From IMG/VR virus record IMGVR_UViG_3300032046_000001, positions 232,551-296,550 of that record: a DNA stretch of 64,000 bases; one strand, 5' to 3'. Position numbers and translations under genes: made by a program. Positions 7,430-56,295 of the stretch are shown here, in pieces (position 1 is the stretch's first letter; each line of letters opens with the position of its first letter). This DNA comes from a virus. The notes under the pieces were generated by a model. The model had not been told where the DNA came from and did no database searches. It worked only from the letters and a program-made list of their open reading frames with translations.

Positions 7430-9103
7430 CTAATCTTTGTTAATTATATCAAATACATCTATCACAGAATAATTACCGTATTTAGTGACTTTTGAATTTG
7501 TTATTTGATCTTTTATCTTTTTAATAATAGAAAAATTATCAACTTCTCTTATACCACTATTATCGAATGGATTATTATCATCATTATTTAATCTAAGAAT
7601 ATTATCAAAATCCATCAATTCTTCATATCTAGTGTCAGCTTCAATGATCAATGGAGGATCATATTTACGAACAAAATAACAAAATGCCGCAGCCATAACT
7701 AAATCATCATGGCATCCCTCGTCTGCTTCAACTTTCCCACTTGGTTTTGTTATTAAACCTATTAATTCTAGAGCTAAATTTTTTGATTTTATAGTTGTTG
7801 GAAATTGACTAACATATGAATATAATGCATCAATAACCAATGGTCTGTTCTGTCTATCTAAAAAAATACCTGGAATAATATTTGTTATTTCTCCTGCTTT
7901 ATTTCTTTTTTTCTCTTTATATAACATGGTGTGATATGTACTTCTATTAAGAGTCTCCATTACTTGATTTCCAACACCATTATTCTCTATCACTAACGTT
8001 CCTGGATATGTTGCACAAGCAAGTTCTACTATTTTACACAAATCGATAACTTCACATTTAGAGTGATATTCCCAAACTTGTGTCATTGAAATATAATCAA
8101 AAATTACTATAGTCGATTTATCTTCACCATTCAAAGTTGCAGTATCAACACCAATTATATAATGCCTATTGGGTACTGGTTTTTCATAAATTCTTATTTC
8201 ACCATTGAATATTTTATGAATTTCAATTGGATCAACAGGATTATCCTGTAGAACAATATTTGTTTTTTCATCAAAGAATGAACCCGATGTCGGTAAAAAT
8301 TTTAACTCTAATTCTTGCTGGATTTTTCTAAGATCATTATCAAAGAGTCTGCATTGCGTTTGATACCATTCTTCATTTAGTTCCTTAATCATCTTCCAAT
8401 GGATTATGAAAGGTTTGAAGATATCATTACCTGCAACGGCATTTTGATATCTGCTATAAAAAAACTTTCCAGTACCAACTGTTTTATTTGGTGTACTCAA
8501 AATTATTGTTCCATATGGTACATCATTTTCTTTGGCAGATTTTTGATTAGTTGCTAAAGCTGGCACCATTCCTGTCCAAGCATCATCTAATTTTTGAACA
8601 AATGCCGCTTCATCAATAACTAAAAAAGTAATACTTTCACCACGAAAACAATTCATAGGATTTTTGGGGTCAATTGGAGAGTTATATACTTTGCTACCAT
8701 TTTTTAATATAAAAGATCGTTCATTTCTCTTTTCAAATTTTGGTCGCATCCATGAAGGTAATTTATCAATAAATCCAGCTATAAATCTTGAAAATTTTGT
8801 TGCTGCTGGTCCATCTTTGGAAATTATTCCAACAACAGCATTATCATGAAAAACTACTAACCATGAAATATATGCTTGAATTATTGTACTAATACCAATT
8901 TGTCGAGATTTTACAACTATAACATAATGTTCTTCATTTATAGTTTTAATTAATTCTAATTGTTTATCATATGGTTTTATTTTTACATCACCACCAGGAA
9001 GTTCCAAAAGAATGTCGTTGGAAATATAATGATTAAAATTATTTTTACATTTCAAATATTCACTGACATTATCCTCCATTATTTTTATTTTTTCATTTTT
9101 CAT
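7430..9103 (-). CDS. terL: terminase large subunit
   Basis: Walker A-like VVKSRQIGISTI and Walker B-like FLVIDEAAF. C-terminal nuclease-type acidic motifs IGVDTA and EGCHDDLVMAAA. Length 557 aa. Confidence 0.85.
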   Translation of the reverse strand: MKNEKIKIMEDNVSEYLKCKNNFNHYISNDILLELPGGDVKIKPYDKQLELIKTINEEHYVIVVKSRQIGISTIIQAYISWLVVFHDNAVVGIISKDGPAATKFSRFIAGFIDKLPSWMRPKFEKRNERSFILKNGSKVYNSPIDPKNPMNCFRGESITFLVIDEAAFVQKLDDAWTGMVPALATNQKSAKENDVPYGTIILSTPNKTVGTGKFFYSRYQNAVAGNDIFKPFIIHWKMIKELNEEWYQTQCRLFDNDLRKIQQELELKFLPTSGSFFDEKTNIVLQDNPVDPIEIHKIFNGEIRIYEKPVPNRHYIIGVDTATLNGEDKSTIVIFDYISMTQVWEYHSKCEVIDLCKIVELACATYPGTLVIENNGVGNQVMETLNRSTYHTMLYKEKKRNKAGEITNIIPGIFLDRQNRPLVIDALYSYVSQFPTTIKSKNLALELIGLITKPSGKVEADEGCHDDLVMAAAFCYFVRKYDPPLIIEADTRYEELMDFDNILRLNNDDNNPFDNSGIREVDNFSIIKKIKDQITNSKVTKYGNYSVIDVFDIINKD

Positions 9104-17502: not shown

Positions 17503-17532
17503 GAATAAAAAATTTGATTGTATTACTACTTT

Positions 17533-17552
17533 CACATATTAATATATATAAA
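17533..17552 (-). promoter_or_regulatory. conserved promoter-like 20-mer TCACATATTAATATATATAA (+ strand reading), 31 nt upstream of the tRNA-Glu 5' end
   Basis: Exact 20-mer also at 33076..33095 and 56276..56295. Variants at 18992, 34576 and 49096. Always sits 5' of - strand genes. Confidence 0.5.
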
Positions 17553-32450: not shown

Positions 32451-32513
32451 ATTAATGCTCCTTATATTAGAATAACATTGTTTAAACTACCATTAATATT
32501 AAGATTCTCCCTC

Positions 32514-32948: not shown

Positions 32949-33075
32949 AATTTGTTCTCCTCTCGAAAAAGATTTCCTGAATCACTAATGTTGTCATCAT
33001 AACTCTTCAGGTGGATAGTATCATTTATACGTGCTATTCATTTAACTACTATGAATTGTAGAGATATAAATTACT

Positions 33076-33095
33076 TCACATATTAATATATATAA
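33076..33095 (-). promoter_or_regulatory. conserved promoter-like 20-mer TCACATATTAATATATATAA
   Basis: Exact copy. Lies 5' of the 32514..32948 gene on the - strand. Confidence 0.5.
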
Positions 33096-33119
33096 TAACT
33101 TCGGTTTATTTCTAAATTA

Positions 33120-34545: not shown

Positions 34546-34575
34546 CTTTTTAAAACGTTATTTTACTTATTCTTT

Positions 34576-34594
34576 CATAGATTAATATATATAG
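34576..34594 (-). promoter_or_regulatory. variant of the promoter-like motif (CATAGATTAATATATATAG), 30 nt upstream of the 34545 start
   Basis: Similar to the 20-mer. Confidence 0.4.
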
Positions 34595-34598
34595 TTCT

Positions 34599-35192: not shown

Positions 35193-35454
35193 GATAACCT
35201 CTATCTGATAGTTCCGTCATTGATTCAAAAAAATTATTATGATGAAATAAAATTTTTCTTCCATCACATTCAAATATTATCCAACCATTTCCTAAATTTT
35301 TTAATATTTTTGCCTCTGTTGGAATATCATACATGACAGAAAAACCACCTTCATGAACAACTTTTGATGGATCTTGTTCATATGTTTTACAGGAAATAGT
35401 TCCTAATATAATAAAAATAATTAATAAAAATTTTTTAATATTTTTGATAGTCAT
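35182..35454 (-). CDS. small lipoprotein (90 aa)
   Basis: MTIKNIKKFLLIIFIILGTISC, with lipobox GTISC. Confidence 0.45.
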   Translation of the reverse strand: MTIKNIKKFLLIIFIILGTISCKTYEQDPSKVVHEGGFSVMYDIPTEAKILKNLGNGWIIFECDGRKILFHHNNFFESMTELSDRGYHVK

Positions 35455-35593
35455 TTAGTGATGAAATTTTTCCAGTTTTCCAATCAAAAACTAAAGTATT
35501 TTCCATACGTTGACGTAGAAGTTTATCTATTTCTTCATTATGCGCCAGTTCATTTGCAAGTTTTTCCAATTTTATTTTTTCATCTTCTGTCAT
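35441..35593 (-). CDS. small coiled-coil protein (50 aa, MTEDEKIKLEKLANELAHNEEIDKLLRQRMEN...)
   Basis: A GAGGGAG SD lies upstream. Manually translated. Confidence 0.3.
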
Positions 35594-35905
35594 TTACCAA
35601 GCTCCCTCACTTTTATATCCAAGATCTTCTATTGAACTCAAATCAAAACCTCGTTCATCTTCGAACATCTGTTTTAACCTGATTCCCTTATTAATACCTT
35701 CTTGTCTCAAACATGCTGATAAATATAAAATATCTTCTCTTAAGTTTTTTAATCGTTGAATTCTGTCTTCGATTGCTCTATTTACACCTATTGTTTGTTT
35801 GTAAGATCTTTGGCTGTCTAAATTATCAATTTCAACTTTTATCAATCTTGCGATTTCAAATAACTCTTCACCATCAAAAAATCGACCTATTATTTTATTA
35901 TCCAT
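35594..35905 (-). CDS. hypothetical protein (103 aa)
   Basis: ORF. Confidence 0.45.
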   Translation of the reverse strand: MDNKIIGRFFDGEELFEIARLIKVEIDNLDSQRSYKQTIGVNRAIEDRIQRLKNLREDILYLSACLRQEGINKGIRLKQMFEDERGFDLSSIEDLGYKSEGAW

Positions 35906-36575
35906 TGAAATCTCGATTTATTAGATTAATCACACTATCTGTTCTAATAAAAAGAGCACCTGCTTTCATCATCTCAAATAAGGCATTCTGTTTGCCTTCC
36001 TCAGTGATATGATATATACAATCATCAATTACCCATACTTTCTTTCCTCGTTTAAGAAGACCAAGTACAGCAGCTAAAACACAGTACTCAGTTGCAACAC
36101 CATATACAAAGAAAGTATCAATATCGAGATATTTTAAACAAAAATCAATATTTTGATTACCACCTGGGTTCGTTTCATCCCAAAAAACATTATAGCTTTG
36201 TTTTTCAAAAGTAATTTGACATGCTGCATCTAAAAGAATTTTTAAAAGTTCTTCACTATACATATCTTCTGAATCAATATGTATTGAATACTCTGGTGTT
36301 GTTGATTCTTCAATTTTACTACAACCATTTGTATCATCTTCACAATGCATTGGAAATGGTCCACCATTTACATCAAGTTCTATTTCCGCTTCTTTATGTG
36401 CGGTATCTCCAAAATGTCTATCACCACAACCAAGTATTTTAATATTATTTTCATAACCATATTTTGTTAATTTAGAAATATTTGGAATAATTTTTTCAGA
36501 ATCTTTTATATATAATTTACCATTCTTGGTCATAAAATCAACTAACGTATCTACATCAAAAAAAGCGCATTTCAT
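35898..36575 (-). CDS. pncA: nicotinamidase (isochorismatase-family cysteine hydrolase)
   Basis: FFDVDTLVDF (catalytic Asp region). PMHCEDDTNGCS (metal-binding HC..T.G). YGVATEYCV (catalytic Cys signature). VIDDCI. Confidence 0.7.
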   Translation of the reverse strand: MKCAFFDVDTLVDFMTKNGKLYIKDSEKIIPNISKLTKYGYENNIKILGCGDRHFGDTAHKEAEIELDVNGGPFPMHCEDDTNGCSKIEESTTPEYSIHIDSEDMYSEELLKILLDAACQITFEKQSYNVFWDETNPGGNQNIDFCLKYLDIDTFFVYGVATEYCVLAAVLGLLKRGKKVWVIDDCIYHITEEGKQNALFEMMKAGALFIRTDSVINLINRDFNG

Positions 36576-36850
36576 TTCTTTAGTTCCTCCAACTGTAATT
36601 TGATTCTTTCCCTGAGTTCACTTAAATATTCACCAGGATTCCAACCAAAACCTTCAGTGATAAAACTAACATCACTGTCACTCATTCCAATACCTTGGGG
36701 TCTGTGTAATATTTCAACTAATCTGGTATATTTAGATTTATTTTTCACAAATTTCTTAATCAATAAATCAATATCATCATCGAGCAGGACTCGATCCCTA
36801 AGTCTCAGAATCAAGTCCTGCATCTTCTCGAATTTGTTTGTGGTTTTCAT
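36572..36850 (-). CDS. hypothetical small protein (92 aa)
   Basis: ORF with ATGA overlap. Confidence 0.4.
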   Translation of the reverse strand: MKTTNKFEKMQDLILRLRDRVLLDDDIDLLIKKFVKNKSKYTRLVEILHRPQGIGMSDSDVSFITEGFGWNPGEYLSELRERIKLQLEELKK

Positions 36851-36857
36851 CCCATTC

Positions 36858-37040
36858 CTATGTTGTTAATAAAATATCAATAATTTTATTATTGAGTTTT
36901 TTACTCCAGATTACATCAGCAATAAATTCATTATAAGTCCAGCCATTTTTTACCAATTCACTGTTAATTTCCTCATGATTCAAATTAGGTAACTTAGACT
37001 CCAGTAATTTCATCAATTCTTTAAAACCGATCTTCTCCAT
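36858..37040 (-). CDS. hypothetical small protein (60 aa)
   Basis: ORF. Confidence 0.35.
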   Translation of the reverse strand: MEKIGFKELMKLLESKLPNLNHEEINSELVKNGWTYNEFIADVIWSKKLNNKIIDILLTT

Positions 37041-37070
37041 TTTAACATCCTTTCCTGTAGGCGATTTAAT

Positions 37071-38252
37071 TTAGGCGATCATTTCTTCTGTTATATCATA
37101 GTCCTTTTCAGTGTCATCTCTTTCAACTTCAAATTGAAAATCAACCATTAAAGACTCAATAACAGATTTTAATCCTCTCGCTCCAATCCCCTTTCTGTCA
37201 GCGATTTCGGCAATTCTTCTTATAGCATTGTCAGTAAAATTTAAATTAATATTATCAATTTCTAATAATCTCTGATATTGTTTGATTATTGAATCAACTG
37301 GGTCTGTTAAAATACGAGCTAATTCATCAATGGATAATCTATTAAGTACCGACACTATTGGAATTCGGCCAACTAATTCAGGTATTAAACCATACTGAAT
37401 AAGATCATCTTGTTCTAAATAATTTAATAAATCGATATCGCGTTCAGCTTTAGACATCTTTGTATTAAAACCAATATTATTTTTACATAGACGAGCTGAA
37501 ACAATATCAGAAAGACCATTAAAGGCACCACCAAATACAAATAATATATTTGATGTATCCATTAACAATCGATCTCCATGTGGGTGTTTTCTTGCACCTG
37601 TTGGTTGAATATTCATTACTGAACCTTCAATCATTTTTAACAAACCAAACTGAACACCTTCACCTGATACGTCTCGTGTTATCGATGTACTTGCTGAACT
37701 CTTCTTGGCTTTTTTATCAATCTCATCAATAAAAATAATTCCCTTAGATGCTCGTTCAACATCAAAATCACAAGCGAGTAATAACATTTGAATCATTGAT
37801 TCAATATTATCACCCACATAACCTTCTTCGGTTAATGTTGTTGCATCAGCAATAATAAATGGAACTCTCAATATTTTTGATAATGTCTGTGCAAAAAGTG
37901 TCTTTCCAGATCCAGATGGACCTATTAAAAGAATATTACTTTTTTGGACATTAAGGTTACATAGAATCTTTAACATATGATTATAGACACCAACAGAAAT
38001 TATTTTTTTAGTTTTTTCTTGACCAATAATATATTGATCTAAAATAATTTTAATCTCTTTTGGTGTCATGATTTTTTGTTTTTTAGGCTTTGAATTTTTA
38101 ATTTGATCAACTTTAAGATCCGAATTAATATTTTCAGCCGTTAATGCCAATCTTGCTGTATCAATACAAGAATCACAGATACAAATATTCGGATCGCTCG
38201 ATTCAATTATTAATTTATAATCTGTACTATGACAGAAGCTACATTCTCTCAT
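37071..38252 (-). CDS. clpX: ClpX-like AAA+ unfoldase
   Basis: N-terminal C4 zinc finger CSFCHS...CICDSC. Walker A GPSGSGKT. EGYVGDNIES. IIFIDEIDK. Pore loop RDVSGEGVQFGLLKMIEG. Confidence 0.85.
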   Translation of the reverse strand: MRECSFCHSTDYKLIIESSDPNICICDSCIDTARLALTAENINSDLKVDQIKNSKPKKQKIMTPKEIKIILDQYIIGQEKTKKIISVGVYNHMLKILCNLNVQKSNILLIGPSGSGKTLFAQTLSKILRVPFIIADATTLTEEGYVGDNIESMIQMLLLACDFDVERASKGIIFIDEIDKKAKKSSASTSITRDVSGEGVQFGLLKMIEGSVMNIQPTGARKHPHGDRLLMDTSNILFVFGGAFNGLSDIVSARLCKNNIGFNTKMSKAERDIDLLNYLEQDDLIQYGLIPELVGRIPIVSVLNRLSIDELARILTDPVDSIIKQYQRLLEIDNINLNFTDNAIRRIAEIADRKGIGARGLKSVIESLMVDFQFEVERDDTEKDYDITEEMIA

Positions 38253-38920
38253 TCTTCGTAATCATCCTCAATTTCATCATATATCATATTTTCTTCTTCA
38301 AATAAATTATCACTAACAATACAATTTACTGGTGAAAGACAGTTTCTATCTCTCATTAATTCATATGGTCTTCCATTTGTTAAATATTGAAGATATCTAC
38401 ACCAAGTTTTATATTTATCCAATCCAAAAATTGAATTTGAATATTTCTTCTTAAACTCATCACTCACATCTCCAACACAACATGGCATTATAATTAGAAA
38501 TGGTGATTTTGAATTTTTATATATTTCTATAATTCTAATTGCCAAATTCTTACAAGGATGTGATGCCATGATTATCGTATTTTCGTCAATCAAGTCTATT
38601 ATATCATCATCATAAATATTTTTTTCAATATACTCAAATCGTCTGATTCTCGCATATTTTCTTCTAACTATACGTTTATCAATCGCAACAGCTTTTGACA
38701 CGGGTAATGAAAAAAGAGAAAGTACGCTGGAAATTGGATTTCCAGCGCACAATTCTACAATGTTATATTTCATTGGATTATCTAAAGTAAGTTTTCGAAT
38801 TTTTTCCCGTAAAGTCATCGCTTCAGATATCTCTTTACAATATCCACTACCAATAGGTGATAACAATCCTAATACATCAGAAGAACAACGTAACCTCAAA
38901 AACATTTCAACATATTTCAT
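38249..38920 (-). CDS. hypothetical protein, possible SAM-dependent methyltransferase
   Basis: IVELCAGNPISS (motif-I-like). SHPC and PCC segments. Weak call. Confidence 0.4.
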   Translation of the reverse strand: MKYVEMFLRLRCSSDVLGLLSPIGSGYCKEISEAMTLREKIRKLTLDNPMKYNIVELCAGNPISSVLSLFSLPVSKAVAIDKRIVRRKYARIRRFEYIEKNIYDDDIIDLIDENTIIMASHPCKNLAIRIIEIYKNSKSPFLIIMPCCVGDVSDEFKKKYSNSIFGLDKYKTWCRYLQYLTNGRPYELMRDRNCLSPVNCIVSDNLFEEENMIYDEIEDDYEE

Positions 38921-38934
38921 TTTCTTTATTCTCC

Positions 38935-39510
38935 TTAATATATTTTCATCATACTCTTAATTATTTCACTGTCATTCTTACTGGAAACAATAGTTGAAAT
39001 ATCATTTGTTCCAAATTTTTTAATTCGAATTGCCCATTCATCGATATCTGAAAATATGTCTAAATATTTATGAGTTTCATTAACTCTATCTTCAAGCGTT
39101 TGGTTTGGAATCTTATTTATATTTAAATAATCTATTAATAGACTGATTAAAAATTCAAAATTAAAATTTTGATTTTTTGATCTAACAATCAATTCATGAT
39201 AAAAACCATCAGCATAAATCGACATTCCTCTATACATCTTAAATTCGTCATCGATATGAAAATTGAAAAAACAATTGTGATAATTGTCTTTATACTTGTA
39301 ACTGAAATTAATTTTCAAATAAAAATTTTTTAAATTTATTTTTTCAATTAGATCATCTGGAATAACAACAACACTTAATATTTGTCTTAACTCATTAAGA
39401 TCTACTTTAGTTTCACTTAAAAATGAAACCATTGCTATTGATCCATAATTGTGATGATTATCAATAAATAATATAGACTGTTTAAATTGCTCAATTCCAA
39501 AATATGTCAT
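38935..39510 (-). CDS. hypothetical protein (191 aa)
   Basis: ORF. Confidence 0.45.
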   Translation of the reverse strand: MTYFGIEQFKQSILFIDNHHNYGSIAMVSFLSETKVDLNELRQILSVVVIPDDLIEKINLKNFYLKINFSYKYKDNYHNCFFNFHIDDEFKMYRGMSIYADGFYHELIVRSKNQNFNFEFLISLLIDYLNINKIPNQTLEDRVNETHKYLDIFSDIDEWAIRIKKFGTNDISTIVSSKNDSEIIKSMMKIY

Positions 39511-42500
39511 TAATCTCCTTTATCGATTCCGATAACTGTTAGATATGAATTTAATAATCGTACAGATTCACTTATCATATCATTCTCTTTATAAATTTCA
39601 TTCCGTAATTTATTTCCAGAATCGATTTGATCAAACATCCATTTATTCTTAGCCTCAATTGAATCAGACTTGGTTGTCATTGATTCATTCAAATTATGAA
39701 CAGAATCATGAGCAATCATACAACTAACTTCCATTTCACCAAGTCTTTGACCACCATTATTTCTTTTACCACCAGTTGGTTGTAGTGTTTTCTTAGTATA
39801 TGTTCCAATTCCTCTCGCTGATAATTTATCTTCAGCTATATGAATCATTCGAAAGAAATACAAATACCCTACAGCTAAATCATTTACAAGCGTATCACCG
39901 GCAACTGGATCATATATTGGATATTTAAATCGAGTGTTTGTATATTTCAACGCTTTTTTACATTGCTTTATATTTATCGATTCAAATGGTGGTTGAATCA
40001 AAGAAAGATCATCAATAAATTTTTCATCAATCTTGACCATTTTTAATTGATTTTTAAACTGGTTAAAATACCAGTTATCTTTTGTATTATCAATAATTTT
40101 AATATATTTTAATAAATATTTTTTAATGGTTGATTGTGATAAGATACCCTCCTTCAATTCTTGATATTTGAGTTTTTCTTCTTCAGATTCAAGTGAATCA
40201 ATCATTTGTAATAATTCATTATCTTTTTTAATCAAACTTCGCATGTTATTTTTCAGATCCATTAATGACATTGCCAAATGAAGTTCAAATAACTGTCCGA
40301 TGTTCATTCGACTTATTATTCCTAATGGATTGATGATAATATCTAATGGTCTACCATCAGGTAATTTCGGCATATCTTCAGTTTTGACAATCTTTGAAAT
40401 AACACCTTTATTGCCGTGTCTATTTCCTATTTTATCGCCAACTTCGATTTTCCGAATATAATATCCTGTTAGATGAACAAAAATACCATCAAACTTCTCA
40501 CCTTTAATTTTATACTTACCCTCAGATAAAAAGTTGTTTAAATTATTTTTAGCGAATTTATTATATTCACTTTTGGGTAAATATTTTCCCAAGATTTTAC
40601 TTATTTTTTTCTCTTTTATTTTTTGATCAATAATTTTTTGTTCAATCCAATCTTGAAATTCTTGAGGTACATTCTTAGTTGGATAATCATTGACATAAAT
40701 ATTACTTTCGAGAATACACATCTTTTTGGGAGATATTAAATTTTCATCTTCTTCAAATAACACACTGAAGTCATTGTTTTGTTGTACTTTTCGTAACATT
40801 GCATATGGTTGACCAGTATTAATCCACTCCCCAGGTTCAGGTAATGGTTTATATTCCATAGTCCTCGCACGTTCACCATATTCGTCATACTCTTCAGGTT
40901 GTGGCTTACATGTATTCAAATTTGAAAGTATTTTATTTGATGGGATAAAGAATGAGAGATCTCGATAATGAATAGAAGATAAGATTCGTTCATCGACTAA
41001 TCTTTCGGATATCACTATACCATCTTCATAATTATAACCATAGTATATACCAATACCTGTTAATAAATTTCTACCAATACTAATATTACGATCCTTTGTA
41101 AATAATGATTCAACTAAAATATCACCTTGACGAAATCGTTCTCCCTCTTTGAAGTTCGTTTCCATCATGTCCATATTATCAGTATAAATTTTCTTGTAAC
41201 CAGTTTGAATTAATTCGATTTCATCATCATCATACTTGACAATAATAAATCCCTCATCATCGTCATGATATAATACAATTCCATCTTTTTTGGCCATCTT
41301 AAGAAAGTTTGTATATTGCGTATATAAACTCTCACATCCACTTTGAATCAATGGTTTTTCTGGTTTTCTTAAAAGGATAGCTTGTCTCATTTGAGACGAG
41401 GCCATTTGTAATCTTGTTTGGTCGTCATGCTCTAAAAAAGGCACCATAGCAACTGGAATTGATATGGGACTTTTAGATTGAATCTCGCTTGTGAATTTCA
41501 TATTATGATCTAATTTTGAAGTTGGTAGAATATTTCCGACAATTCCACAATTATCTCTATCTGGTGTATCAACAACACAAATTCGTCCGAACATTGAATC
41601 ATTGATATCACGAATATTTTCTGGAACACTCTTTCTTTCGAAACCATTCGGACCCAATAATGATATTCTTGATAATTCAGTCAATGAATCAATAGGATTT
41701 ATTGAAAAATCAAATTGAATAATTTCCGATACATTACAGTTCTGTAATATTTCGGATGAATTGATATTAAATTTTGGTTTTGAATTTTTAGTTATAATAC
41801 ATAGATTGAATATTGCTTTTGCCACATAACTAAAAATTAAATATTCAAAACATCTAATTCGTTTATTTTCATAATTTAAAAAATCAAAAGGTCCATTTTG
41901 TATAGCATCAATAAAATCTTCTATAACAGAACCAGTTTTAAGAAATCTGGCTGTTATAACATCAATTTTTGGTATAAGATCTAATCCATATAATATTTCT
42001 TCACCTTTAAGTTTGGCATTATACTTAGTAAAAGTTTCACCCAACATCTTGGTATATTCGTCTTTGGTCTTATTCATATTATAATATAAATAGACTTGTT
42101 TAATTAATCGATTATAAAATGTGTCTTCTAAACCTTCAACGTTTTCCTGACTTAAATTAAATCGTGAATTTAATACTTCTGGACCATAATAGGCCAATAA
42201 TAATAATGCGAAAGGTAGTTTTTTATTAAGAAAGGTAAATATGATCGTTTTCTTTTCATAAAGTATTATAGTCTGGACATTTGATTTAAACTTAATTATA
42301 AAACTATCATCTGATTTTTTATTCAATTTTGTTATTATTGGAAAATCGGTAATTTGAAAATGAGGAATCTTTCTTTTACCATTGATAAAAATATAATTAT
42401 CGTCAATGAGTTCTGGAATGTTAATACTTAGATCAACTTTTGCCTCATCTTTTGATAAGATAATATTTAAATTTTTCTTAAACGTTTTCTGTAACTCTTC

Positions 42501-42671
42501 CCCTTGAGATCGACAATCGTTTATTTCAAACTTCTCAATTTTATATCCAATTTCTTTGACTGGTTGTAATGCCTCAAATATTTGTCCTTCAAGTTTTTCA
42601 TATTCACGTTTTCTTAAAGTAAAAATATTATCAACATCATCAATTTTTAGATTCGGATTTTCTATAATCAT
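39510..42671 (-). CDS. rpoB: DNA-directed RNA polymerase beta subunit, compact bacterial type (1053 aa)
   Basis: GDKIGNRHGNKGVISKI...LDIIINPLGIISRMNIGQLFELHL. C-terminal GGQRLGEMEVSCMIAHD. Fork and clamp segments recognisable. Confidence 0.9.
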   Translation of the reverse strand: MIIENPNLKIDDVDNIFTLRKREYEKLEGQIFEALQPVKEIGYKIEKFEINDCRSQGEELQKTFKKNLNIILSKDEAKVDLSINIPELIDDNYIFINGKRKIPHFQITDFPIITKLNKKSDDSFIIKFKSNVQTIILYEKKTIIFTFLNKKLPFALLLLAYYGPEVLNSRFNLSQENVEGLEDTFYNRLIKQVYLYYNMNKTKDEYTKMLGETFTKYNAKLKGEEILYGLDLIPKIDVITARFLKTGSVIEDFIDAIQNGPFDFLNYENKRIRCFEYLIFSYVAKAIFNLCIITKNSKPKFNINSSEILQNCNVSEIIQFDFSINPIDSLTELSRISLLGPNGFERKSVPENIRDINDSMFGRICVVDTPDRDNCGIVGNILPTSKLDHNMKFTSEIQSKSPISIPVAMVPFLEHDDQTRLQMASSQMRQAILLRKPEKPLIQSGCESLYTQYTNFLKMAKKDGIVLYHDDDEGFIIVKYDDDEIELIQTGYKKIYTDNMDMMETNFKEGERFRQGDILVESLFTKDRNISIGRNLLTGIGIYYGYNYEDGIVISERLVDERILSSIHYRDLSFFIPSNKILSNLNTCKPQPEEYDEYGERARTMEYKPLPEPGEWINTGQPYAMLRKVQQNNDFSVLFEEDENLISPKKMCILESNIYVNDYPTKNVPQEFQDWIEQKIIDQKIKEKKISKILGKYLPKSEYNKFAKNNLNNFLSEGKYKIKGEKFDGIFVHLTGYYIRKIEVGDKIGNRHGNKGVISKIVKTEDMPKLPDGRPLDIIINPLGIISRMNIGQLFELHLAMSLMDLKNNMRSLIKKDNELLQMIDSLESEEEKLKYQELKEGILSQSTIKKYLLKYIKIIDNTKDNWYFNQFKNQLKMVKIDEKFIDDLSLIQPPFESINIKQCKKALKYTNTRFKYPIYDPVAGDTLVNDLAVGYLYFFRMIHIAEDKLSARGIGTYTKKTLQPTGGKRNNGGQRLGEMEVSCMIAHDSVHNLNESMTTKSDSIEAKNKWMFDQIDSGNKLRNEIYKENDMISESVRLLNSYLTVIGIDKGD

Positions 42672-42934
42672 TTGTCACTTTCATTTTGTTCTGATTTTTC
42701 GGATGAATTAAATATCAATATACTCTCCCAATTTATCCTGTCTTCTGTACAGAATTCTTCGTCGAACTTTGATGAGAAATTATCAATTATATTATTATAT
42801 GCGATATTGAATTCATTATTTTTTCTTTTTTAAAACATCTTTTAATTTCAGATTTTTTAAATTATCTAATTTATTAATGTGATAATAGACTATATTATTA
42901 TTAATATAGTCTTCAATTTGTCTTGTTAATTCAT

Positions 42935-43737
42935 TCATATAATAACTTTAAAATAATCATCAACTGTTTTAAAATATTCGTGATTGAGTTCTATTCCGAT
43001 TCCATGACGATTTAACTTCGCAGCAACTTTTAACGTTGTACCACTTCCCATAAACGGATCTAAAATATTATCATTGGGTTGTGTAAAAAGTTTTATAAAC
43101 CATTCAGGAATCCATATTGGAAACACAGCACTATGATTTTTATTATTACATTCAGTAGCACCATATAAGACATTAGTTGGATAAACCATATCTCTTTTGA
43201 TCCAATTAGAGACGTTTTTTCCAAAACCACTTCCAACTTTCGATTGATCTCTAATTTTATCCGTTTCACTTAAATTTTTTAATCTTGATTGTGACCAATC
43301 ACCAATTGGAATCATTACATTATCTTGAAACATGTTGAATTTTTTATCTTTATTGAATTGATAAAGATGTTCCCATGAATCACGAAATCTATTTGGCCAT
43401 TTTCCAGGAAAACAGTTCTTTTTATGCCAGATGAATTCCTCAGTCCATAACCATCCCTGTTTTCTCATAGCCAAAACAAGTTCTATTACATATGTATGTC
43501 TTTCTCCTCCAACTGCACACTCTTTTATATTTAAAATAAACGTACCTGTCGGTTTCAAGACTCTTAAAAGTTCTTGTGATATTGGAATAAACCATTCTAT
43601 ATATTTATCTGGATGTACACCACCGTATGTATTTTTCTCTGATTCGCATATGGTGGAGATGTTAATATTAAGTCTATTGAATTACTATCTATTTCTTTTA
43701 ATTTATCTGAACAATCACCAAGTAATAAACGTATCAA
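42935..43737 (-). pseudogene. N4/N6 DNA methyltransferase (beta-class order: SPPY then FxGxG) interrupted by a frameshift at an A5 (T5 on +) run
   Basis: Upstream frame: (TTG)IRLLLGDCSDKLKEIDSNSIDLILTSPPYANQRK... ends with a stop at 43597. Downstream frame: ...NTYGGVHPDKYIEWFIPISQELLRVLKPTGTF...DPFMGSGTT. Adding one A at 43632-43636 joins the two frames. Confidence 0.55.
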
Positions 43738-43753
43738 AACTTTTACACCTCAA

Positions 43754-46537
43754 TTATTTTATTTTCTCTCCAAGTAGGATCTTATCTATTATTCCTGAAT
43801 ATTGACCAACTTCAAAAAGACCTTTTATGATACTTCTTTTTGGATCTGAAAAACCAAGACTTAGAATCCATGATTCGAATGCCGGAACTTGTTGTATACT
43901 ATGCCATTCTGGTTTAACATTCTCTCTATTTTCAACCAATCTCCATTTTGTATAACCACTCCACATTAATTGACTAATGACAGCTTCAATATGAATATGA
44001 TGAATCTTTCCATTATTATTATAAATTTTGAATAATTTTTCTGCCATTTCACCAGGAATTTGATTATCACTAAAATGATGAAAAGCATCACAAGCAACCG
44101 AAAGATCAGCAACAATATCATCTTGTTTTAAATCACCATCAGATTTTGCACCTCTAATATTTGCAACACCTGACGTATGAAATGTTCTTAGAATCAATTG
44201 AGTAGACCGTTCACCTAATGTTTGTGCTGCAATAATACCAATATATTTACTATTTAAAATCTTGTAAAGATTACCATAACATTTGTGACAAATTTTATTA
44301 CTTCTACAATATATCGGTGATCTCAAAAGAATGATTTTACCAATTAGATTCTTATAATTTTCTTTTGTAATTTCAACATATTCATTATTATCATTTAAAT
44401 AATAACGATATAATAACATCTCGGCTTTTTGTACAGAATCGACATTGATAGTTAAGTGATCTCTTGTTCCACAATCTTCTAAATCAAGATCCTTTTGAAG
44501 ATTAACACAAGAAAAATTTAATTTTCTTGAAAGATAGCCAGATTCCCCTGTATTTAAAGCAACATCTAATAATCCTTTTCTACATCCGTATGTTGATATA
44601 AAAAATTCTTCAGGTGTTAAACCATCTAATAAACTCGATTTAACTGGTGTTGGTATAATCTCACCTTTAAAGTTCGAAATAAAACCTCTTGATAGAATAA
44701 TTTGTCTTGCTTGATCCCATGTTCCTCTAGATCCAGAACTAATCATATAAGAATAGTTAAAATTTTCTTTCAAAAAGTTTTCTGTTTCCAGACTGGAAAT
44801 TTTATTTAACTGGGTTACGATATTATCAGATTCATATAATTCTTTCTTAAGCGAATCATCTTTTAATTCGAATGAATCCAATGACATTGTTGGACCAAAT
44901 AAGGTAGCGTATTTAAAACCGCAATTTTTAATCTGATCTAAAATTTCAGCTAGGATCGTGTAGTCATATTTTGATTTAATATCTTCTAAAATATTTAATA
45001 GTTCTTTCTTTGATATTATCTTATCAATTATAGGATAATCATTCGGTAAACAATCATTGAATATTTTTCTACTTTCTGTAATTTTTTGACCTTTACAAAC
45101 GACCATCTTTTTCAATTTTGGAAATTGATTTGAAGTTAATGCGTATATACCAAGAATCATATCTTGAGAATGAGTAGTTGTTAATAATCCATTTGCGGGA
45201 TTACTCAAATTTTTAGTTATTAAAAATTTATCATAGACTTCTTGTTTTGATTCTTCTGATATAGGCACATATACAGCCATCTGATCACCATCAAAATCTG
45301 CATTAAAACAACCACAAACTAACGGGTGAATCTTGATTGTATTATTCCCATGAATTCGATATACTGTTTCATTATTATCATCTTTCTTTTCGAAAATGAC
45401 AGAATTATTATTATCTAATTTTATTTTGAAACCTAACATACCCAATCTGTGAAGAGAAGGTTGTCGATTAATAATACACACTTGAGGATGTTGTTCAAAA
45501 TATTCTTTGACAAATTCGAATAAATAATATGATTTTGTAAGAATCGTCTGATCTAATATTTGAATCGCACTATTAAGAAATTTAACTATTCCGCGATATG
45601 TCATTTCTTTTGCGATGTCAATTTTAAATAATTCAAGAATCATACTATAAGGTAAAATACACTCATCTAATTTCAACATTGGATCTGGTGTGATCACAGC
45701 CCTACCTGAAAAATCAATTCTCTTACCTAATATATGTCCTCTGATTAAACCATCTTTTTCTGACATTGACGATAAAATATAACCATATAGTTCATTCACA
45801 TCTTTTTGAAGTTGATGATAATATTGATAATATATTTTTTTATCATTCGCAATATCATAGTTTGTATTGGCCATAATTTCTTTTTTGGTTAATAACCTGA
45901 TATAGAATCTATTTATTTTATCTACGATTTGGTTACGATTATTTTTTTCTGTGATTTTTGATGCAGGACGTAAATCAGCAGGTAAGACAATAACTTCATT
46001 AATCAATACGTTATGAATATTGTCATATATATATTTCCATTTTGGATCATCCAACTTATATTTTGAAGTTTCATACAATAATTTTATAACAGCTCCCATT
46101 TTATCCCATCTTTCAGAATCAGATGGAATATTATTAGGATCATCTGTCACTAAATATTTTTCACCTTTTTTATATAATATACTTCTTTCATTTGAAATTA
46201 ATATATCAACCAGGGATTTAATTTTAGAACCACATAAACTGGAAATCAAATCGTAAAAAATTGGATTCATAACTGGTAAAGGAAGTTTGATTTTTGCAAA
46301 TCTTTTTCTTCTTTCACCACAATTAGTTATTTCCACACCACATATTTTACAAACTTCACCTTCACCAGAAAGTCCATAAAAAGTTCCACATTGACATGTA
46401 TAATTTTTTACTGGACCAAAAATCTGTTCAGAAAATAAACCATCTTCTGTAAATCTGCCACGATTATTAATTATTTTTGAAGTTTTGATTTCTTTCAAAT
46501 CTTCACAAAAGTCATGTATATCTAAGAGTTTCGACAT
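43754..46537 (-). CDS. rpoC: DNA-directed RNA polymerase beta-prime subunit, compact bacterial type (927 aa)
   Basis: N-terminal Zn ribbon CQCGTFYG...CKICGVE. Catalytic NADFDGDQMAVYVP. Bacterial-like throughout but about 480 aa shorter than E. coli RpoC. Confidence 0.9.
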   Translation of the reverse strand: MSKLLDIHDFCEDLKEIKTSKIINNRGRFTEDGLFSEQIFGPVKNYTCQCGTFYGLSGEGEVCKICGVEITNCGERRKRFAKIKLPLPVMNPIFYDLISSLCGSKIKSLVDILISNERSILYKKGEKYLVTDDPNNIPSDSERWDKMGAVIKLLYETSKYKLDDPKWKYIYDNIHNVLINEVIVLPADLRPASKITEKNNRNQIVDKINRFYIRLLTKKEIMANTNYDIANDKKIYYQYYHQLQKDVNELYGYILSSMSEKDGLIRGHILGKRIDFSGRAVITPDPMLKLDECILPYSMILELFKIDIAKEMTYRGIVKFLNSAIQILDQTILTKSYYLFEFVKEYFEQHPQVCIINRQPSLHRLGMLGFKIKLDNNNSVIFEKKDDNNETVYRIHGNNTIKIHPLVCGCFNADFDGDQMAVYVPISEESKQEVYDKFLITKNLSNPANGLLTTTHSQDMILGIYALTSNQFPKLKKMVVCKGQKITESRKIFNDCLPNDYPIIDKIISKKELLNILEDIKSKYDYTILAEILDQIKNCGFKYATLFGPTMSLDSFELKDDSLKKELYESDNIVTQLNKISSLETENFLKENFNYSYMISSGSRGTWDQARQIILSRGFISNFKGEIIPTPVKSSLLDGLTPEEFFISTYGCRKGLLDVALNTGESGYLSRKLNFSCVNLQKDLDLEDCGTRDHLTINVDSVQKAEMLLYRYYLNDNNEYVEITKENYKNLIGKIILLRSPIYCRSNKICHKCYGNLYKILNSKYIGIIAAQTLGERSTQLILRTFHTSGVANIRGAKSDGDLKQDDIVADLSVACDAFHHFSDNQIPGEMAEKLFKIYNNNGKIHHIHIEAVISQLMWSGYTKWRLVENRENVKPEWHSIQQVPAFESWILSLGFSDPKRSIIKGLFEVGQYSGIIDKILLGEKIK

Positions 46538-46542: not shown

Positions 46543-46968
46543 TTATATCCCCAATTTGTGTAAATTAAAAAAATTTGATATTTTACCAATTATTGAGTTC
46601 TCTTTTTTCTCTACCTTTTTCATATATTCTTGATGATCATATGGTTCATACTCTATATAATTAAATGGAGTGAAATAACAATTATTTAAATTATAAGTTC
46701 TGATTAAATTTTCAATTAATTTAATTAAATCATTTGATAATACTTTATATTTGACATTAGCTGATAAACAAAATAAATCAGTATATGGATCGGCATTACA
46801 ATGATCAGCATCTAATTTAATACTAATTAATTTATTTTTGCCATCTGTTATTCTAACTGAATATTTATCAATTATATAATTTGGATCTATTTTTGTTATT
46901 CTGTAAATTTTATTATTATGAATCATTCTCTCAGGTACAAGTTTTTTTGCTATTACAAACTGTTTCAT
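46543..46968 (-). CDS. hypothetical protein, candidate E2/UBC-like partner of the adjacent E1
   Basis: DADHCNADPYTDLFCLSANV resembles a degenerate HPN...C UBC active-site segment. Starts in the ATGA overlap with the E1-like gene. Low confidence. Confidence 0.3.
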   Translation of the reverse strand: MKQFVIAKKLVPERMIHNNKIYRITKIDPNYIIDKYSVRITDGKNKLISIKLDADHCNADPYTDLFCLSANVKYKVLSNDLIKLIENLIRTYNLNNCYFTPFNYIEYEPYDHQEYMKKVEKKENSIIGKISNFFNLHKLGI

Positions 46969-47861
46969 TATGCTGCACCAGACTCTGGAAGAAGATTTAT
47001 AATATAATTATTTTGAGTCTGTGTAATTGAAATGATGTAATAGAGTTCAGGTTCATTTGAATTATTTATTAGATGTGACATTGTTGAAATGATATCATTA
47101 GCTGATTGAATTGAATTTTTGGGAATTTTTCTAATTGGATATTTATTAGAATCACCAATTGTTATTAGAACATCTTTATTTCTATTCTCCTGAATTATAT
47201 CAGTTACATTCTCTTCAAAATTTAATAATTTCTTAGATGCTTCATAATCTATAATCATGTTTCTATTATTATATTTTTTCTTGATATCATTGGATACTTC
47301 ATCTAAATAATCAAGAGATATTTCTTTCACTATTTGATTATCAATCATATAATTAATAAAACCACTTTGTAGAAAAGATGTTGCTATCATTGTTGCTTTT
47401 CTTAAATCATTTTTTGATAACAGTGTTGTATATCGGCCTTCATAATTCTTATCATATGTTATATTTTTTCTACAATCTACAACAAGATATCTGGACGTGA
47501 TATACAATCTAACATCTATTTTATTTTTGCGATTATAAACAAAATCTCGACAATCAATTATTAAATCTGAATATGGGAGTTCCGTAATTTCTTCTTCATA
47601 TCTAGTTGTTAATATTTCAACATCTATATTACTTTGATCTTTTATGATATCATGAAGAACTGTTGTTTTATATTTTCCAACATCACTCTTTCTATATATT
47701 GAATTATATGTATTCTTCATTTCAACTCTATCATAATCAACCAAGATTAATTTTTGTAAATTATCCAGTTCGGATAATGATTGAGACAAAAAACTACCTA
47801 TGGTACCAAGACCAATAACTGCTACTGTTTTTATAGAAGATTCCTCCACAATTTTTTTCAA
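46968..47861 (-). CDS. ThiF/MoeB/E1-like adenylyltransferase
   Basis: TVAVIGLGTIGSFLSQSLSELDNLQKLILVDYDRVEMKNTYNSIYRKSDVG carries the Rossmann GxGxxG plus the D.D.VE.(S)N..RQ-like motif. Confidence 0.65.
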   Translation of the reverse strand: MKKIVEESSIKTVAVIGLGTIGSFLSQSLSELDNLQKLILVDYDRVEMKNTYNSIYRKSDVGKYKTTVLHDIIKDQSNIDVEILTTRYEEEITELPYSDLIIDCRDFVYNRKNKIDVRLYITSRYLVVDCRKNITYDKNYEGRYTTLLSKNDLRKATMIATSFLQSGFINYMIDNQIVKEISLDYLDEVSNDIKKKYNNRNMIIDYEASKKLLNFEENVTDIIQENRNKDVLITIGDSNKYPIRKIPKNSIQSANDIISTMSHLINNSNEPELYYIISITQTQNNYIINLLPESGAA

Positions 47862-47981
47862 TATCTAAAATTGGTGGGTAATTAAAGTTAAATAAAATAT
47901 ATTTTTAATTTGTTATTTAAATAAATTTTTTATTCCCATAAAAAAATAAAAAAATAAATTAGGATAATTATAGGATAAGGG

Positions 47982-48007
47982 AAGGGATGGAATTTCTTCC
48001 ATCCCTT
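47982..48007. terminator. 11-bp hairpin (aagggatggaa-tttc-ttccatccctt)
   Basis: Perfect inverted repeat 50 nt 3' of the 48057 gene end on the - strand. Followed on + by ttttccactt and on - by an AU-rich tract. Confidence 0.35.
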
Positions 48008-48056
48008 TTTCCACTTATGTACTACACCCGGTATATCATATTATAATATTGGGTTA

Positions 48057-48611
48057 TTAACCCTTGCGATCGGCAGGCTTCGTGAACTCCAGGGTCAAAT
48101 CAGTCGATGTCAAAACGTAGTCGTATGCTACCTCGGTCGTACCGTTGACCAAAGCTTTGGAACCGGCAGCGATATTGAACGCTCCACTGAGCAAATTGAA
48201 TACTTCCTGGACTGCATGTCCTACGGTGTCTTCGATCTCCTGTTTGTTGGTACCGCAGGTAACGACAATCTTGGTGTTGACACAGCCGTCATTGGCATTG
48301 GTGACAGTAAACGTACCGGAAACCGCAGCAAGGGCAACCCTGGTAAAATGGGCAATGAGAAGTTCCACCAAAATAGCCTTGGGTTGTTTTCCCAGACCGG
48401 ACATACCATTTTCCTCGGCCAGCGTGAGCAGATCGGTAACAGACATTGCATTCAATTGTTCCCGGCTAAGAACCTCGGATTTCTCGACCATATCGTTCTC
48501 AATTACTTTGGCAATCATCTCGACGGTCTGTCCGTCCAATCCAGTGATCCCACGTCCAGCAGCGATTTGAAGAAGTTCGGCCTTTGACTTACCATTCAGT
48601 GCTTGATTCAT
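48057..48611 (-). CDS. GC-rich hypothetical protein (184 aa) with two N-terminal HeH/Rho-N-like motifs
   Basis: KAELLQIAAGRGITGLDGQTVEMIAKVIE and VTDLLTLAEENGMSGLGKQPKAILVELLI. AAGGAG SD. Local GC far above background, so many spurious overlapping ORFs on both strands. Confidence 0.5.
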   Translation of the reverse strand: MNQALNGKSKAELLQIAAGRGITGLDGQTVEMIAKVIENDMVEKSEVLSREQLNAMSVTDLLTLAEENGMSGLGKQPKAILVELLIAHFTRVALAAVSGTFTVTNANDGCVNTKIVVTCGTNKQEIEDTVGHAVQEVFNLLSGAFNIAAGSKALVNGTTEVAYDYVLTSTDLTLEFTKPADRKG

Positions 48612-48784
48612 AAAAATAATTCTCCTTTTGGAAATAGATTAGGTTCACTAAGTGAATCCTTTGAGATAAAATACAGCGGCGACATTAATTATTTTTTTCT
48701 ATCTCCTAAATAATTATAGCACCTCCCTTTGGATTTATCCATGAAGTTAGAGAGTTAAGACAACTCTCTCTTGATGGATTCTAT

Positions 48785-49051
48785 TTACTGAGTAAATTCC
48801 TGAAGCTTTTTCACTTTTCCCTCAATCCAATCAATACGATTCTTGGCATCCTGTTGACCAGCCTTAGCAGCCGAAATCTGATGATTTAGTTTCTGCACTT
48901 TTCGTGTCAAGGATTCAATTCGTTGTTCCTCCATTTGCGATGCCTGTTGAAGTTTCTTCTCAGCAACTGCAAACATTTTCAATGCGTTACCAAGAACTGT
49001 GGGAGCAACATTAATACCAAAATGAGATAATAAAATATAAAACCAGTCCAT
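48785..49051 (-). CDS. small coiled-coil protein (88 aa)
   Basis: N-terminal hydrophobic stretch, then QQASQMEEQRIESLTRKVQKLNHQISAAKAGQQDAKNRI. Confidence 0.4.
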   Translation of the reverse strand: MDWFYILLSHFGINVAPTVLGNALKMFAVAEKKLQQASQMEEQRIESLTRKVQKLNHQISAAKAGQQDAKNRIDWIEGKVKKLQEFTQ

Positions 49052-49095
49052 TACAGACCTCCTTTACAATATTAAAAAGTACGAATTGTACCTTT

Positions 49096-49115
49096 CACAT
49101 ATTTATTATATATAG
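49096..49115 (-). promoter_or_regulatory. variant of the promoter-like motif (CACATATTTATTATATATAG), 44 nt upstream of the 49051 start
   Basis: Similar to the 20-mer. Confidence 0.35.
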
Positions 49116-49167
49116 ATATAATCGTATATACAAGAATTTAAATATTTGGGTGCTTTGTATAATTAAA

Positions 49168-49869
49168 CTATACTGGGAACTGTTTGGCTAAAACTTCACC
49201 TGTGAGAATATCGAAATCATTCTCACAGGTGGTATCGAGTTGACCAAGGATACAGATCTTGTAAAATCGACACAACACAATCCATGCCGCTCCCATGTTT
49301 GCGAATAACAATTGTGGTTCTGCTTGATGCAATGCCTCACATCCGAGACGCTGAGGGTGTTGTCCATCACCAACGGATATCTCTTCATGGTATCTGGTAA
49401 TTGACGCAGTGTAGTTTTGTCCTGCAATCCGAACGTTTGTCAAAACATCGCCGGTGTAGAATCCATTACCCCCAGAAATTAAAACTACATTTTGCAGGGT
49501 AGCAACTTTTTCTGCAATCAACGCTCTGGTATCATGATTGTCAACACACACTAATACAATATCATCTTCTTGGATGATACTACTAATGTTGCTCTCACTG
49601 AGATATTCAGGAACCGAATGGATAGTTAAATCATACTTCTGCATGAGTTCGGTGGCTTTAATCTCGGCTTTATTACCGAAGTTATAAAAATCCTGTCTCT
49701 CCCGATTACGCTGCTCGAAGCTATCTCCGTCTACGATAGTTACCTCGAAGGTGTCAGCCTCTTCGCCTTCTGCTGGTTGCGGATGATAATAATTGAGGAA
49801 TTGGCACAACGGATCAAGTAATTTAGTACCAATACCACCAGCACCTATAACTTTAATCGACCGATTCAT
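49168..49869 (-). CDS. ThiF/MoeB/E1-like adenylyltransferase (233 aa)
   Basis: IKVIGAGGIGTKLLDPLCQFL. TIVDGDSFEQRNRERQ. LVCVDNHDTRALI. SGGNGFYTGDV. Confidence 0.7.
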   Translation of the reverse strand: MNRSIKVIGAGGIGTKLLDPLCQFLNYYHPQPAEGEEADTFEVTIVDGDSFEQRNRERQDFYNFGNKAEIKATELMQKYDLTIHSVPEYLSESNISSIIQEDDIVLVCVDNHDTRALIAEKVATLQNVVLISGGNGFYTGDVLTNVRIAGQNYTASITRYHEEISVGDGQHPQRLGCEALHQAEPQLLFANMGAAWIVLCRFYKICILGQLDTTCENDFDILTGEVLAKQFPV

Positions 49870-56246: not shown

Positions 56247-56275
56247 AGAAACGGTTTTATAATATCACATATTAA

Positions 56276-56295
56276 TATATATAATTCACTTAGGT
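56276..56295 (-). promoter_or_regulatory. conserved promoter-like 20-mer TCACATATTAATATATATAA, 30 nt upstream of the 56246 start
   Basis: Exact copy. Confidence 0.5.

Follow-up and report, generated by a model that had tools for sequence, protein, structure and literature searches.

Complete, unsplit genes for RNA polymerase beta' and beta subunits in an uncultured, AT-rich jumbo phage, and their probable place in a known lineage of phage polymerases

The subject of this study is a pair of neighbouring genes that specify proteins resembling multisubunit RNA polymerase (RNAP) subunits beta' and beta. They lie in a 64,000-nt stretch of viral DNA (positions 232,551-296,550 of IMG/VR record IMGVR_UViG_3300032046_000001), here called the window, which covers about a fifth of the genome, has a GC content of about 28%, and carries nearly all of its open reading frames (ORFs) on the minus strand. 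A protein identical to the window beta', on record in JGI, ENA and Logan, is encoded by a contig of 312,420 bp, and the window is overlapped by a Logan contig of 21.6 kb (run SRR9617926) whose end lies about 1.1 kb beyond it. The beta' gene is followed by the beta gene, and the spacer between them (42672-43753, 1082 nt) is an inserted segment holding a damaged DNA methyltransferase gene and a 49-codon ORF. A first-pass annotation of the window had proposed polymerase genes with products of 1053 aa (beta) and 927 aa (beta'), and both positions and lengths agreed exactly with the ORF list and the translations (Table 1). Three points go beyond that annotation: the order of the genes, beta' before beta; a second, paralogous pair in related phages; and the fact that this type of enzyme has already been described, in the phages named multimeric-RNAP-encoding Caudovirales (mReC). 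The gene order was the same in 28 of 28 related loci, where the junction between the two genes is usually tight (-4 to about +220 nt).

The window comes from the genome of a tailed jumbo phage and not from a bacterium, because it carries a T4-type large terminase gene (TerL, PF03237, found by Pfam among the window ORFs), several homing endonuclease genes of the GIY-YIG and HNH/NUMOD types, and tRNA genes, because no rRNA was found in it, and because the parent contig measures 312 kb. Other window genes belong to NAD+ salvage and CoA metabolism, or specify an RNA ligase and two ATPases, one SbcC-like and the other ClpX-like. The TerL protein is at most 28% identical to those of cultured phages, and no DNA-level similarity to any deposited phage genome was found. 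A gp23-type major capsid protein (VOG11186 / PF07068) was also sought; the scanned window ORFs gave no PF07068 match, and 248 kb of the genome lies outside the window.

Domain matches and alignments show both subunits to be complete single polypeptides of bacterial-type architecture, in which all the predicted catalytic elements are kept: the Mg-binding NADFDGD loop, the bridge helix, a trigger-loop arm and the two zinc sites, together with the GNRHGNKG and GGQRLGEMEV active-site motifs of beta. All of the motifs quoted in the first-pass annotation (GDKIGNRHGNKGVISKI, GGQRLGEMEV, NADFDGDQMAV and the N-terminal zinc ribbon) were present in the translations. The beta' protein matched Pfam Rpb1 domains 1-5 (E-values down to 1e-28), its zinc ribbon has the form C-x-C...C-x2-C (C48/C50/C63/C66), and both of its zinc sites, the NADFDGDQMAV motif and trigger-loop residues R784 and H787 were invariant in 24 homologs. 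When compared with PDB sequences using phmmer, it retrieved bacterial beta' chains (E about 1e-79 to 2e-93) over a stretch that starts at the zinc ribbon, takes in the catalytic domain and the bridge helix, and reaches the trigger loop's N-terminal arm, and hhalign aligned it to E. coli beta' at 33% identity over 747 columns (E. coli residues 35-954). Its last ~135 aa are conserved within the mReC-type family.

The beta protein matched Rpb2 domains 3, 6 and 7 (E down to 9e-54) and carries the motif GDKIGNRHGNKGVISKI / GNRHGNKGVISKI. It retrieved bacterial beta sequences from the PDB (E about 1e-64 to 2e-78, approximately residues 305-1011) and aligned to E. coli beta at 28% identity over 716 columns (E. 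coli residues 440-1336). An N-terminal "DN..F.ING" motif is also kept, with ELIDDNYIFINGKRKI aligning to E. coli PLMTDNGTFVINGTERV, and an AF2 model of beta (pTM 0.64) could be superposed from end to end on the beta subunits of Thermus and E. coli (TM 0.53-0.56, E = 3e-43). Neither protein can be taken for a fragment of a split polymerase, because each is a single ORF that aligns from N- to C-terminal conserved bacterial regions; this candidate was rejected on the terminal conserved regions found at both ends of both proteins, weakly so for the beta' C-terminus. Both genes are under strong purifying selection, with dN/dS values, calculated against relatives that are 88% and 98% identical, of 0.08-0.10 for beta' and 0.07 for beta. 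Since dN/dS is about 0.08 and all catalytic residues are intact, the pair is judged to be clearly functional and, being compact and unsplit, would lend itself well to expression and cryo-EM.

The annotation had described the subunits as 300-480 aa shorter than those of E. coli and as minimised in size. The first statement is borne out, with measured differences of 289 aa for beta (E. coli, 1342 aa) and 480 aa for beta' (E. coli, 1407 aa). The second holds chiefly for beta'; beta falls short of its Thermus counterpart (1119 aa) by no more than about 65 aa, and much of the excess in E. coli consists of insertions particular to the E. coli lineage. The alignment to RpoB and RpoC that the annotation had proposed allowed the missing parts to be mapped. 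Absent from beta', relative to E. coli, are SI3 (~943-1130), segments near 530-569 and 824-847, the C-terminal tail (1359-1407), much of the jaw, and further segments of the clamp. The beta protein is without SI2, as indicated by long gaps across E. coli ~938-1040 in the hhalign alignment; its N-terminus, the site of SI1, was left unaligned by hhalign, and local alignment there was weak (z = 2.9). A gain is seen in beta', where 20 aa are inserted at ~377-397, directly before the catalytic loop. This insertion is specific to the subclade of the window, in which it measures 20-45 aa.

The claim that the proteins are highly bacterial-like was found to be true in part. They share with bacterial RpoB and RpoC the order of domains, the zinc sites, bridge helix, trigger loop and catalytic loop, and the active-site motifs of beta, and they score far better against bacterial models (369 and 399 bits) than against archaeal ones (~141-142 bits). 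In PDB fold comparisons, too, the best matches were to bacterial beta and beta' chains, not to phage polymerases, the beta' model itself being poor. However, identity to bacterial subunits is only 28-33%, and neither protein reached the NCBIfam equivalog cut-offs (896 bits for NF001616, 801 for TIGR02013, 963.5 for TIGR02386): beta (rpoB, E = 5e-110) scored 369 bits with NF001616 and 340 bits with TIGR02013, and beta' (rpoC, E = 6e-119) 398.6 bits with TIGR02386, so that both main scores were less than half of the cut-off. In the published phylogeny, the mReC lineage falls outside Bacteria (PMC7481178). On these comparisons, the likeness is one of architecture and catalytic motifs and not of orthology, given the low identity and the equivalog scores below cut-off.

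The same data bear on whether the pair is simply an rpoBC operon of bacterial or organellar origin, from a reduced bacterium, a symbiont or a plastid, or one captured recently from a host. The low GC content, the compact subunits and the near-canonical motifs would all fit such an origin, but it is barely credible in view of everything else at the locus. Bacterial genes have the order rpoB-rpoC and the context rplKAJL / rpsL, whereas here the order is reversed, no ribosomal-protein genes flank the pair, and it is surrounded by ThiF-like, methyltransferase and ClpX-like genes; nor is an alpha or omega gene nearby. The closest relatives are all on IMG/VR viral contigs, and the age and diversity of the lineage, whose members share 39-66% identity, mean that the pair is no recent capture. 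An origin in a bacterium, symbiont or plastid was therefore rejected on the terminase, the homing endonucleases, the missing rRNA, the gene order, and the sub-threshold equivalog scores.

Multisubunit polymerases are known from other phages, and jumbo phages such as phiKZ, AR9 and PBS2 encode both virion and non-virion enzymes (PMC7598289, PMC7824862). Like the window pair, these are phage polymerases of the double-psi-beta-barrel class that come without homologs of alpha, omega or sigma, and they occur as two sets per genome, an arrangement seen on the window side in relatives. Their beta and beta' are highly diverged and each divided into two or three polypeptides, whereas the window has one polypeptide for each, complete and with near-canonical motifs, and the contrast with phiKZ-like enzymes drawn in the first-pass annotation is thus well founded. 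By tblastn, the window beta matched AR9 beta over only 31% of the query, at 23% identity. Unsplit beta and beta' genes have been annotated in a few cultured phages (the Rhizobium RHph_Y65/TM30 group, Vibrio Va2 and 1.031.O, Cobetia Carin-5, Yersinia YerA41 and Salmonella Arash), and these resemble the window in having single-polypeptide beta'-like genes (84-87% query coverage), but identity is only 24-27%, they belong to other phage lineages, and a sigma factor is encoded by YerA41 as well. The YerA41 subunits are early-expressed proteins found in association with the virion (PMC7354516).

The closest correspondence is with the mReC (Weinheimer & Aylward 2020, Nat Commun 11:4506; PMC7481178), a group of uncultured tailed phages, some with genomes of >200 kb, that was defined from 97 metagenomic contigs carrying unsplit beta and beta' genes and a TerL of family PF03237. 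Their beta (~1000 aa) and beta' (~900 aa) align to the cellular models COG0085 and COG0086, and pairs in the supplement to that study have lengths such as 1009/915, 999/902 and 1006/933 aa (PMC7481178). The text of the same paper contains no discussion of two pairs, gene order or missing domains (PMC7481178). Related loci fetched from IMG/VR and Logan are labelled here with L-numbers, and listed protein homologs with P-numbers; named mReC contigs were paired with these loci by sample identifier and exact length. Ga0075122_10000014 (152,423 bp) corresponds to L026, with 39% (beta') and 35% (beta) identity to the window proteins; Ga0180432_10000070 (149,482 bp) to L004, with 53% for beta'; and Ga0180434_10000255 (80,832 bp) to both L138 and L109. 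The window proteins are placed in the mReC lineage because they match the named contigs by full-length identity, at 39-54%, as against ~28-33% for bacteria. The window shares with the mReC the separate, unsplit beta and beta' genes, the tailed-phage setting and the PF03237 terminase, and differs in having a methyltransferase pseudogene between the two RNAP genes.

Homologs are abundant. The protein database holds thousands of beta' proteins of ~900 aa and beta proteins of ~1000 aa, on phage contigs of up to ~300 kb; among the homologs listed, and near-identical strains aside, identity to the window proteins was 47-66%, and IMG/VR holds hundreds more. The nearest mReC beta' sequences in IMG/VR are those of L004 and L005 (52-54% identity), while closer relatives (62-66% and 86-98%) were met only as short metagenomic contigs. 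Taken together, the pair in all probability represents the catalytic core genes of an mReC-type multisubunit RNAP belonging to an uncultured, AT-rich jumbo phage. This type of enzyme was described in 2020 from metagenomes, and the window adds a further member to the lineage. We know of no mReC polymerase that has been purified, of none with mapped promoters, and of no study that addresses how beta and beta' would assemble without alpha; to our knowledge these proteins have so far been used for deep phylogeny.

A second pair of RNAP genes occurs in relatives of the window phage, and it lies upstream on all related contigs that are long enough to include it. In L029 (IMGVR_UViG_3300001533_002103), a window-type pair (904 + 1016 aa) is accompanied upstream by a longer one, with a beta'2 of 1002 aa and a beta2 of 1371 aa; across relatives, these proteins range from ~780 to 1007 aa and from ~1355 to 1371 aa. 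Pfam confirms them as RNAP subunits, and they are ~30% identical to those of the first pair. No cysteine ribbon was visible in the first 120 residues of L029 beta'2, and no alpha, omega or sigma domain was found by Pfam beside this pair. A profile scan with beta'2 found both pairs on at least seven IMG/VR contigs (3300001533_002103, 3300010391_001464, 3300017989_000062, 3300029268_000036, 3300025713_000650, 3300031669_000010 and 3300017991_000092), and six more are implied by equal lengths in both homolog lists (151964, 183522, 156749, 248136, 65187 and 61393 bp). The mReC supplement lists both pairs ("_a"/"_b") for several contigs, the longer pair being about 1362/1005 aa, and for the 308-kb contig Ga0180431_10000006 gives pairs of 1362/1009 and 1019/899 aa (PMC7481178). 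Within the window, tblastn with the second pair of L029 matched only the two known genes. By synteny, the second pair of the window genome would start beyond about coordinate 70,000, outside the window. The consistent occurrence of two pairs in relatives suggests that two polymerases share a temporal programme, one with an origin outside the phiKZ group.

The beta'beta enzyme formed by the window pair would act separately from the host core polymerase in transcribing part of the phage genome, would need neither alpha nor omega, in the manner of the phiKZ and AR9 enzymes, and would probably rely on a phage-specific initiation factor. By analogy with phiKZ, two paralogous polymerases in one genome may divide the temporal classes of genes between them. 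The phiKZ, AR9 and PBS2 enzymes are resistant to rifampicin, whereas for the window enzyme this is only predicted. Substitutions at D516 or H526 of E. coli beta give rifampicin resistance, and in the hhalign alignment these positions are occupied in the window beta by F322, which is invariant in the family, and E332; on account of these two residues, the window polymerase is probably insensitive to the drug.

The first-pass annotation had seen no alpha, omega or sigma gene in the window, and Pfam searches for alpha, omega and sigma-70 domains in the ~95 window ORFs were also negative, a result that is weak for the whole genome, the window being a fifth of it. The same observation would suit a different arrangement, in which the phage beta and beta' replace the large subunits of the host and join its alpha2 and omega together with a sigma factor of host or phage origin, thereby redirecting a hybrid enzyme, for the most part host-derived, to phage promoters. 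Such an enzyme would be in keeping with the bacterial-type architecture and with the far better fit of bacterial than of archaeal models, and the cultured phage YerA41, with distantly similar subunits, also encodes a sigma factor (PMC7354516). On the other side stand the low identity to bacterial subunits, the small share of the genome covered (64 kb of 312 kb), from which the missing genes say little, and the characterised phage multisubunit polymerases of phiKZ and AR9, which use no host subunits (PMC7598289, PMC13282480). The hhalign alignment places Y239 of the window beta' opposite E. coli E295 of the clamp helices, so that this residue is not conserved. We take E295 to be important for sigma-70 binding. 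Such a hybrid, built with alpha, omega and sigma of the host, is the main rival to an independent phage enzyme, nothing specific speaks in its support, and it is considered improbable.

A recurrent 20-nt motif, TTATATATATTAATATGTGA, had been put forward as the sequence that the window polymerase might read. The motif is genuine. It occurs in three exact copies and in a fourth that has three mismatches, all on the coding strand and intergenic, where 0.16 copies were expected from shuffled sequences and none of 100 shuffles reached four. Its placement 18-127 nt upstream of a tRNA gene or an ORF start would suit a promoter, and sigma-70-like sites are not enriched in the window (97 against 89 +/- 8.5 in shuffles), a scan for sigma-70 promoters and terminators around the genes likewise showing no excess over shuffles. 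But four sites in 64 kb with ~90 genes could at best serve a small class of genes, no copy lies near or upstream of the RNAP genes, and the 17-nt core is absent from 166 other loci, leaving aside L001/L089 (one Logan contig, near-identical to the window). In addition, the genome probably has two polymerases besides the host enzyme at its disposal, and the motif could equally be regulatory or related to homing. That it is a promoter read by the window polymerase is, on balance, rather unlikely.

A broader proposal, which we put forward tentatively, is that the lineage runs its whole transcription on two paralogous two-subunit polymerases without alpha, omega or sigma, one carried in the virion to serve the early genes and the second recognising AT-rich motifs such as the 20-mer. 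If this were true, the window pair, with a total of ~1980 aa, would be one of the smallest bacterial-type RNAP cores, and the system would form an independent, unsplit counterpart to the virion and non-virion polymerases of phiKZ as well as a minimal model of RNAP assembly without an alpha scaffold.

Several points weigh against regarding the pair as the core of an independent, mReC-type polymerase. The last ~135 aa of beta' match bacterial regions G/H weakly (IHHIHIEAVISQLM against INDKHIEVIVRQML gave z = 3.1, and the final segment z = 0.5), and the AF2 model of beta' alone was of low confidence (pLDDT 62, pTM 0.37), for which reason the domain-level conclusions on beta' were drawn from sequence and profile alignments. 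Placement outside Bacteria was taken from the published phylogeny, the levels of identity and the NCBIfam cut-offs and not from a tree of our own. The parent contig is absent from the 120 homologs listed for the second pair, and a second pair in the window genome is deduced from its relatives. Finally, independence from host alpha, omega and sigma is something we only infer, for a lineage known from sequences.

Table 1. Locations of the RNAP genes and of other features of the window, with the second RNAP pair of related loci
Feature	Location	Strand	Description
beta'-like RNAP subunit	43754..46537	(-)	927 aa, complete, unsplit, first gene of pair (ORF and translation, Pfam)
beta-like RNAP subunit	39510..42671	(-)	1053 aa, complete, unsplit, second gene of pair (ORF and translation, Pfam)
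Second pair, beta'2/beta2, in relatives	L029:9989-17114; also L091-L116		~23-30 kb upstream of the window-type pair
N6/N4 DNA methyltransferase pseudogene	42935..43737	(-)	PF01555, frameshifted at A5 run 43632-43636
49-codon ORF	42668..42817	(-)	between methyltransferase and beta; stop overlaps beta start (ATGA)
141-aa ORF	46543..46968	(-)	ends 6 nt before beta' start; conserved neighbour
20-mer, exact	17532..17551	(-)	29 nt upstream of tRNA-Glu
20-mer, exact	33076..33095	(-)	intergenic, 127 nt upstream of ORF start 32948
20-mer, variant	34575..34594	(-)	three mismatches; 29 nt upstream of HNH endonuclease start 34545
20-mer, exact	56265..56284	(-)	18 nt upstream of ORF start 56246
TerL, T4-type large terminase	7430..9103	(-)	PF03237
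Upstream block	46968-54490		upstream of beta'
Inserted block, ~15 kb	24300-39500		downstream of beta
tRNA cluster	13968-17502	coding strand	eight or nine genes
Homing endonuclease genes	9093-13945, 31053-31415, 33880-34545		paralogous; GIY-YIG/NUMOD3, HNH/NUMOD4
CapR-homology gene	69-833	(+)	three tandem ~200-nt repeats (210-806)

The gene between beta' and beta had been described as a frameshifted DNA methyltransferase, and it is one, with the domain PF01555 (E = 4e-32, in a C-terminal ORF of 207 aa) and a coding region spread over two frames. The N-terminal 46 codons, which include DLILTSPPY, run from a TTG at 43737 to a stop at 43597, and the remainder, with DPFMGSGT, continues in the other frame down to 42935; the SPPY and FxGxG AdoMet motifs are thus both present but in different frames, and no intact frame is present. 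Two 98%-identical relatives from other samples, L085 and L086, have A6 at the site of the shift, which restores the frame, and a 3' deletion of ~340 nt that removes the DPFMGSGT AdoMet motif. In the 88%-identical L088, there is no insert and no methyltransferase, and the beta' stop overlaps the beta start. The 49-codon ORF is present in L085-L087 and absent from L088. From these comparisons, the A5 run of the window is read as a 1-nt deletion in an A6 run, and the methyltransferase as a recent, selfish insertion at the beta'/beta junction that is decaying and is not part of the polymerase; the A5 and A6 runs, the ~340-nt deletion and the absence of the gene from L088 point to a recent arrival that was disabled independently in sister lineages. 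Programmed frameshifting was considered unlikely, the run being only A5, while the sisters have A6 together with a separate disabling deletion and another relative has no gene at all.

Other family members carry unrelated insertions of 409-980 nt at the same junction, one of them a cysteine-rich ORF of 326 aa. Some beta' proteins contain an intein (PF14890), as in P0011 (1288 aa) and P0055 (1319 aa), one is enlarged (L018:10001-13210, 1069 aa), and in one locus beta is divided into two ORFs of 523 and 463 aa (L025:7709-10708). Selfish elements seem to invade the mReC-type beta' and beta genes repeatedly. Many other IMG/VR phage contigs, in the group of loci L036-L083, contain single ORFs of 2000-2470 aa that match both beta and beta' at 23-29% identity (e.g. 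L047:6389-13807 and L083:5159-12337), and so have the appearance of beta-beta' fusion polymerases from a different lineage of phages. Three of the listed homologs of phage RNAP subunits (P0039, P0191 and P0238) are labelled by NCBI as hypothetical proteins of Candidatus Thorarchaeota metagenome-assembled genomes; their contigs reach 255 kb and probably belong to phages, having been mis-binned into archaeal genomes.

The 141-aa ORF next to beta' has homologs in 17 of 28 related loci (tblastn; median identity 33%) and no match in Pfam, PHROG or NCBIfam, and can be viewed as a candidate accessory protein. Searches of PHROGs, Pfam and NCBIfam likewise returned nothing usable for conserved neighbours of 141, 184, 191, 240, 290, 426 and 804 aa. 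The block upstream of beta' is common to 14-23 of 28 relatives and specifies two ThiF-like proteins, a radical-SAM protein, and the unannotated 426-aa and 804-aa proteins; its GC content (0.35-0.41) is above that of the rest of the window (0.24-0.31). Downstream of beta, a block of ~15 kb appears to have been inserted in the window genome, because relatives have homologs of window genes 21604-24269 directly after beta. It contains genes for CoaE/PPAT, a radical-SAM protein, NAPRTase, NadE, nicotinamidase, an SPFH protein and the ClpX-like ATPase, and on this predicted content amounts to an auxiliary metabolic island for NAD+ and CoA. The Moraphages (PMC12619734) were considered as the identity of the window phage and rejected, as they are without RNAP genes, and RNAP goes unmentioned in the paper that describes NAD+ pathways in gut jumbo phages.

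The tRNA cluster includes tRNA-Ile(UAU) and tRNA-Leu(CAA). Copies of the homing endonuclease genes form DNA repeats that are 74-82% identical (repeat families D2, D3 and D7-D9), and one of the few plus-strand genes has three tandem repeats that correspond to three CapR-homology domains.

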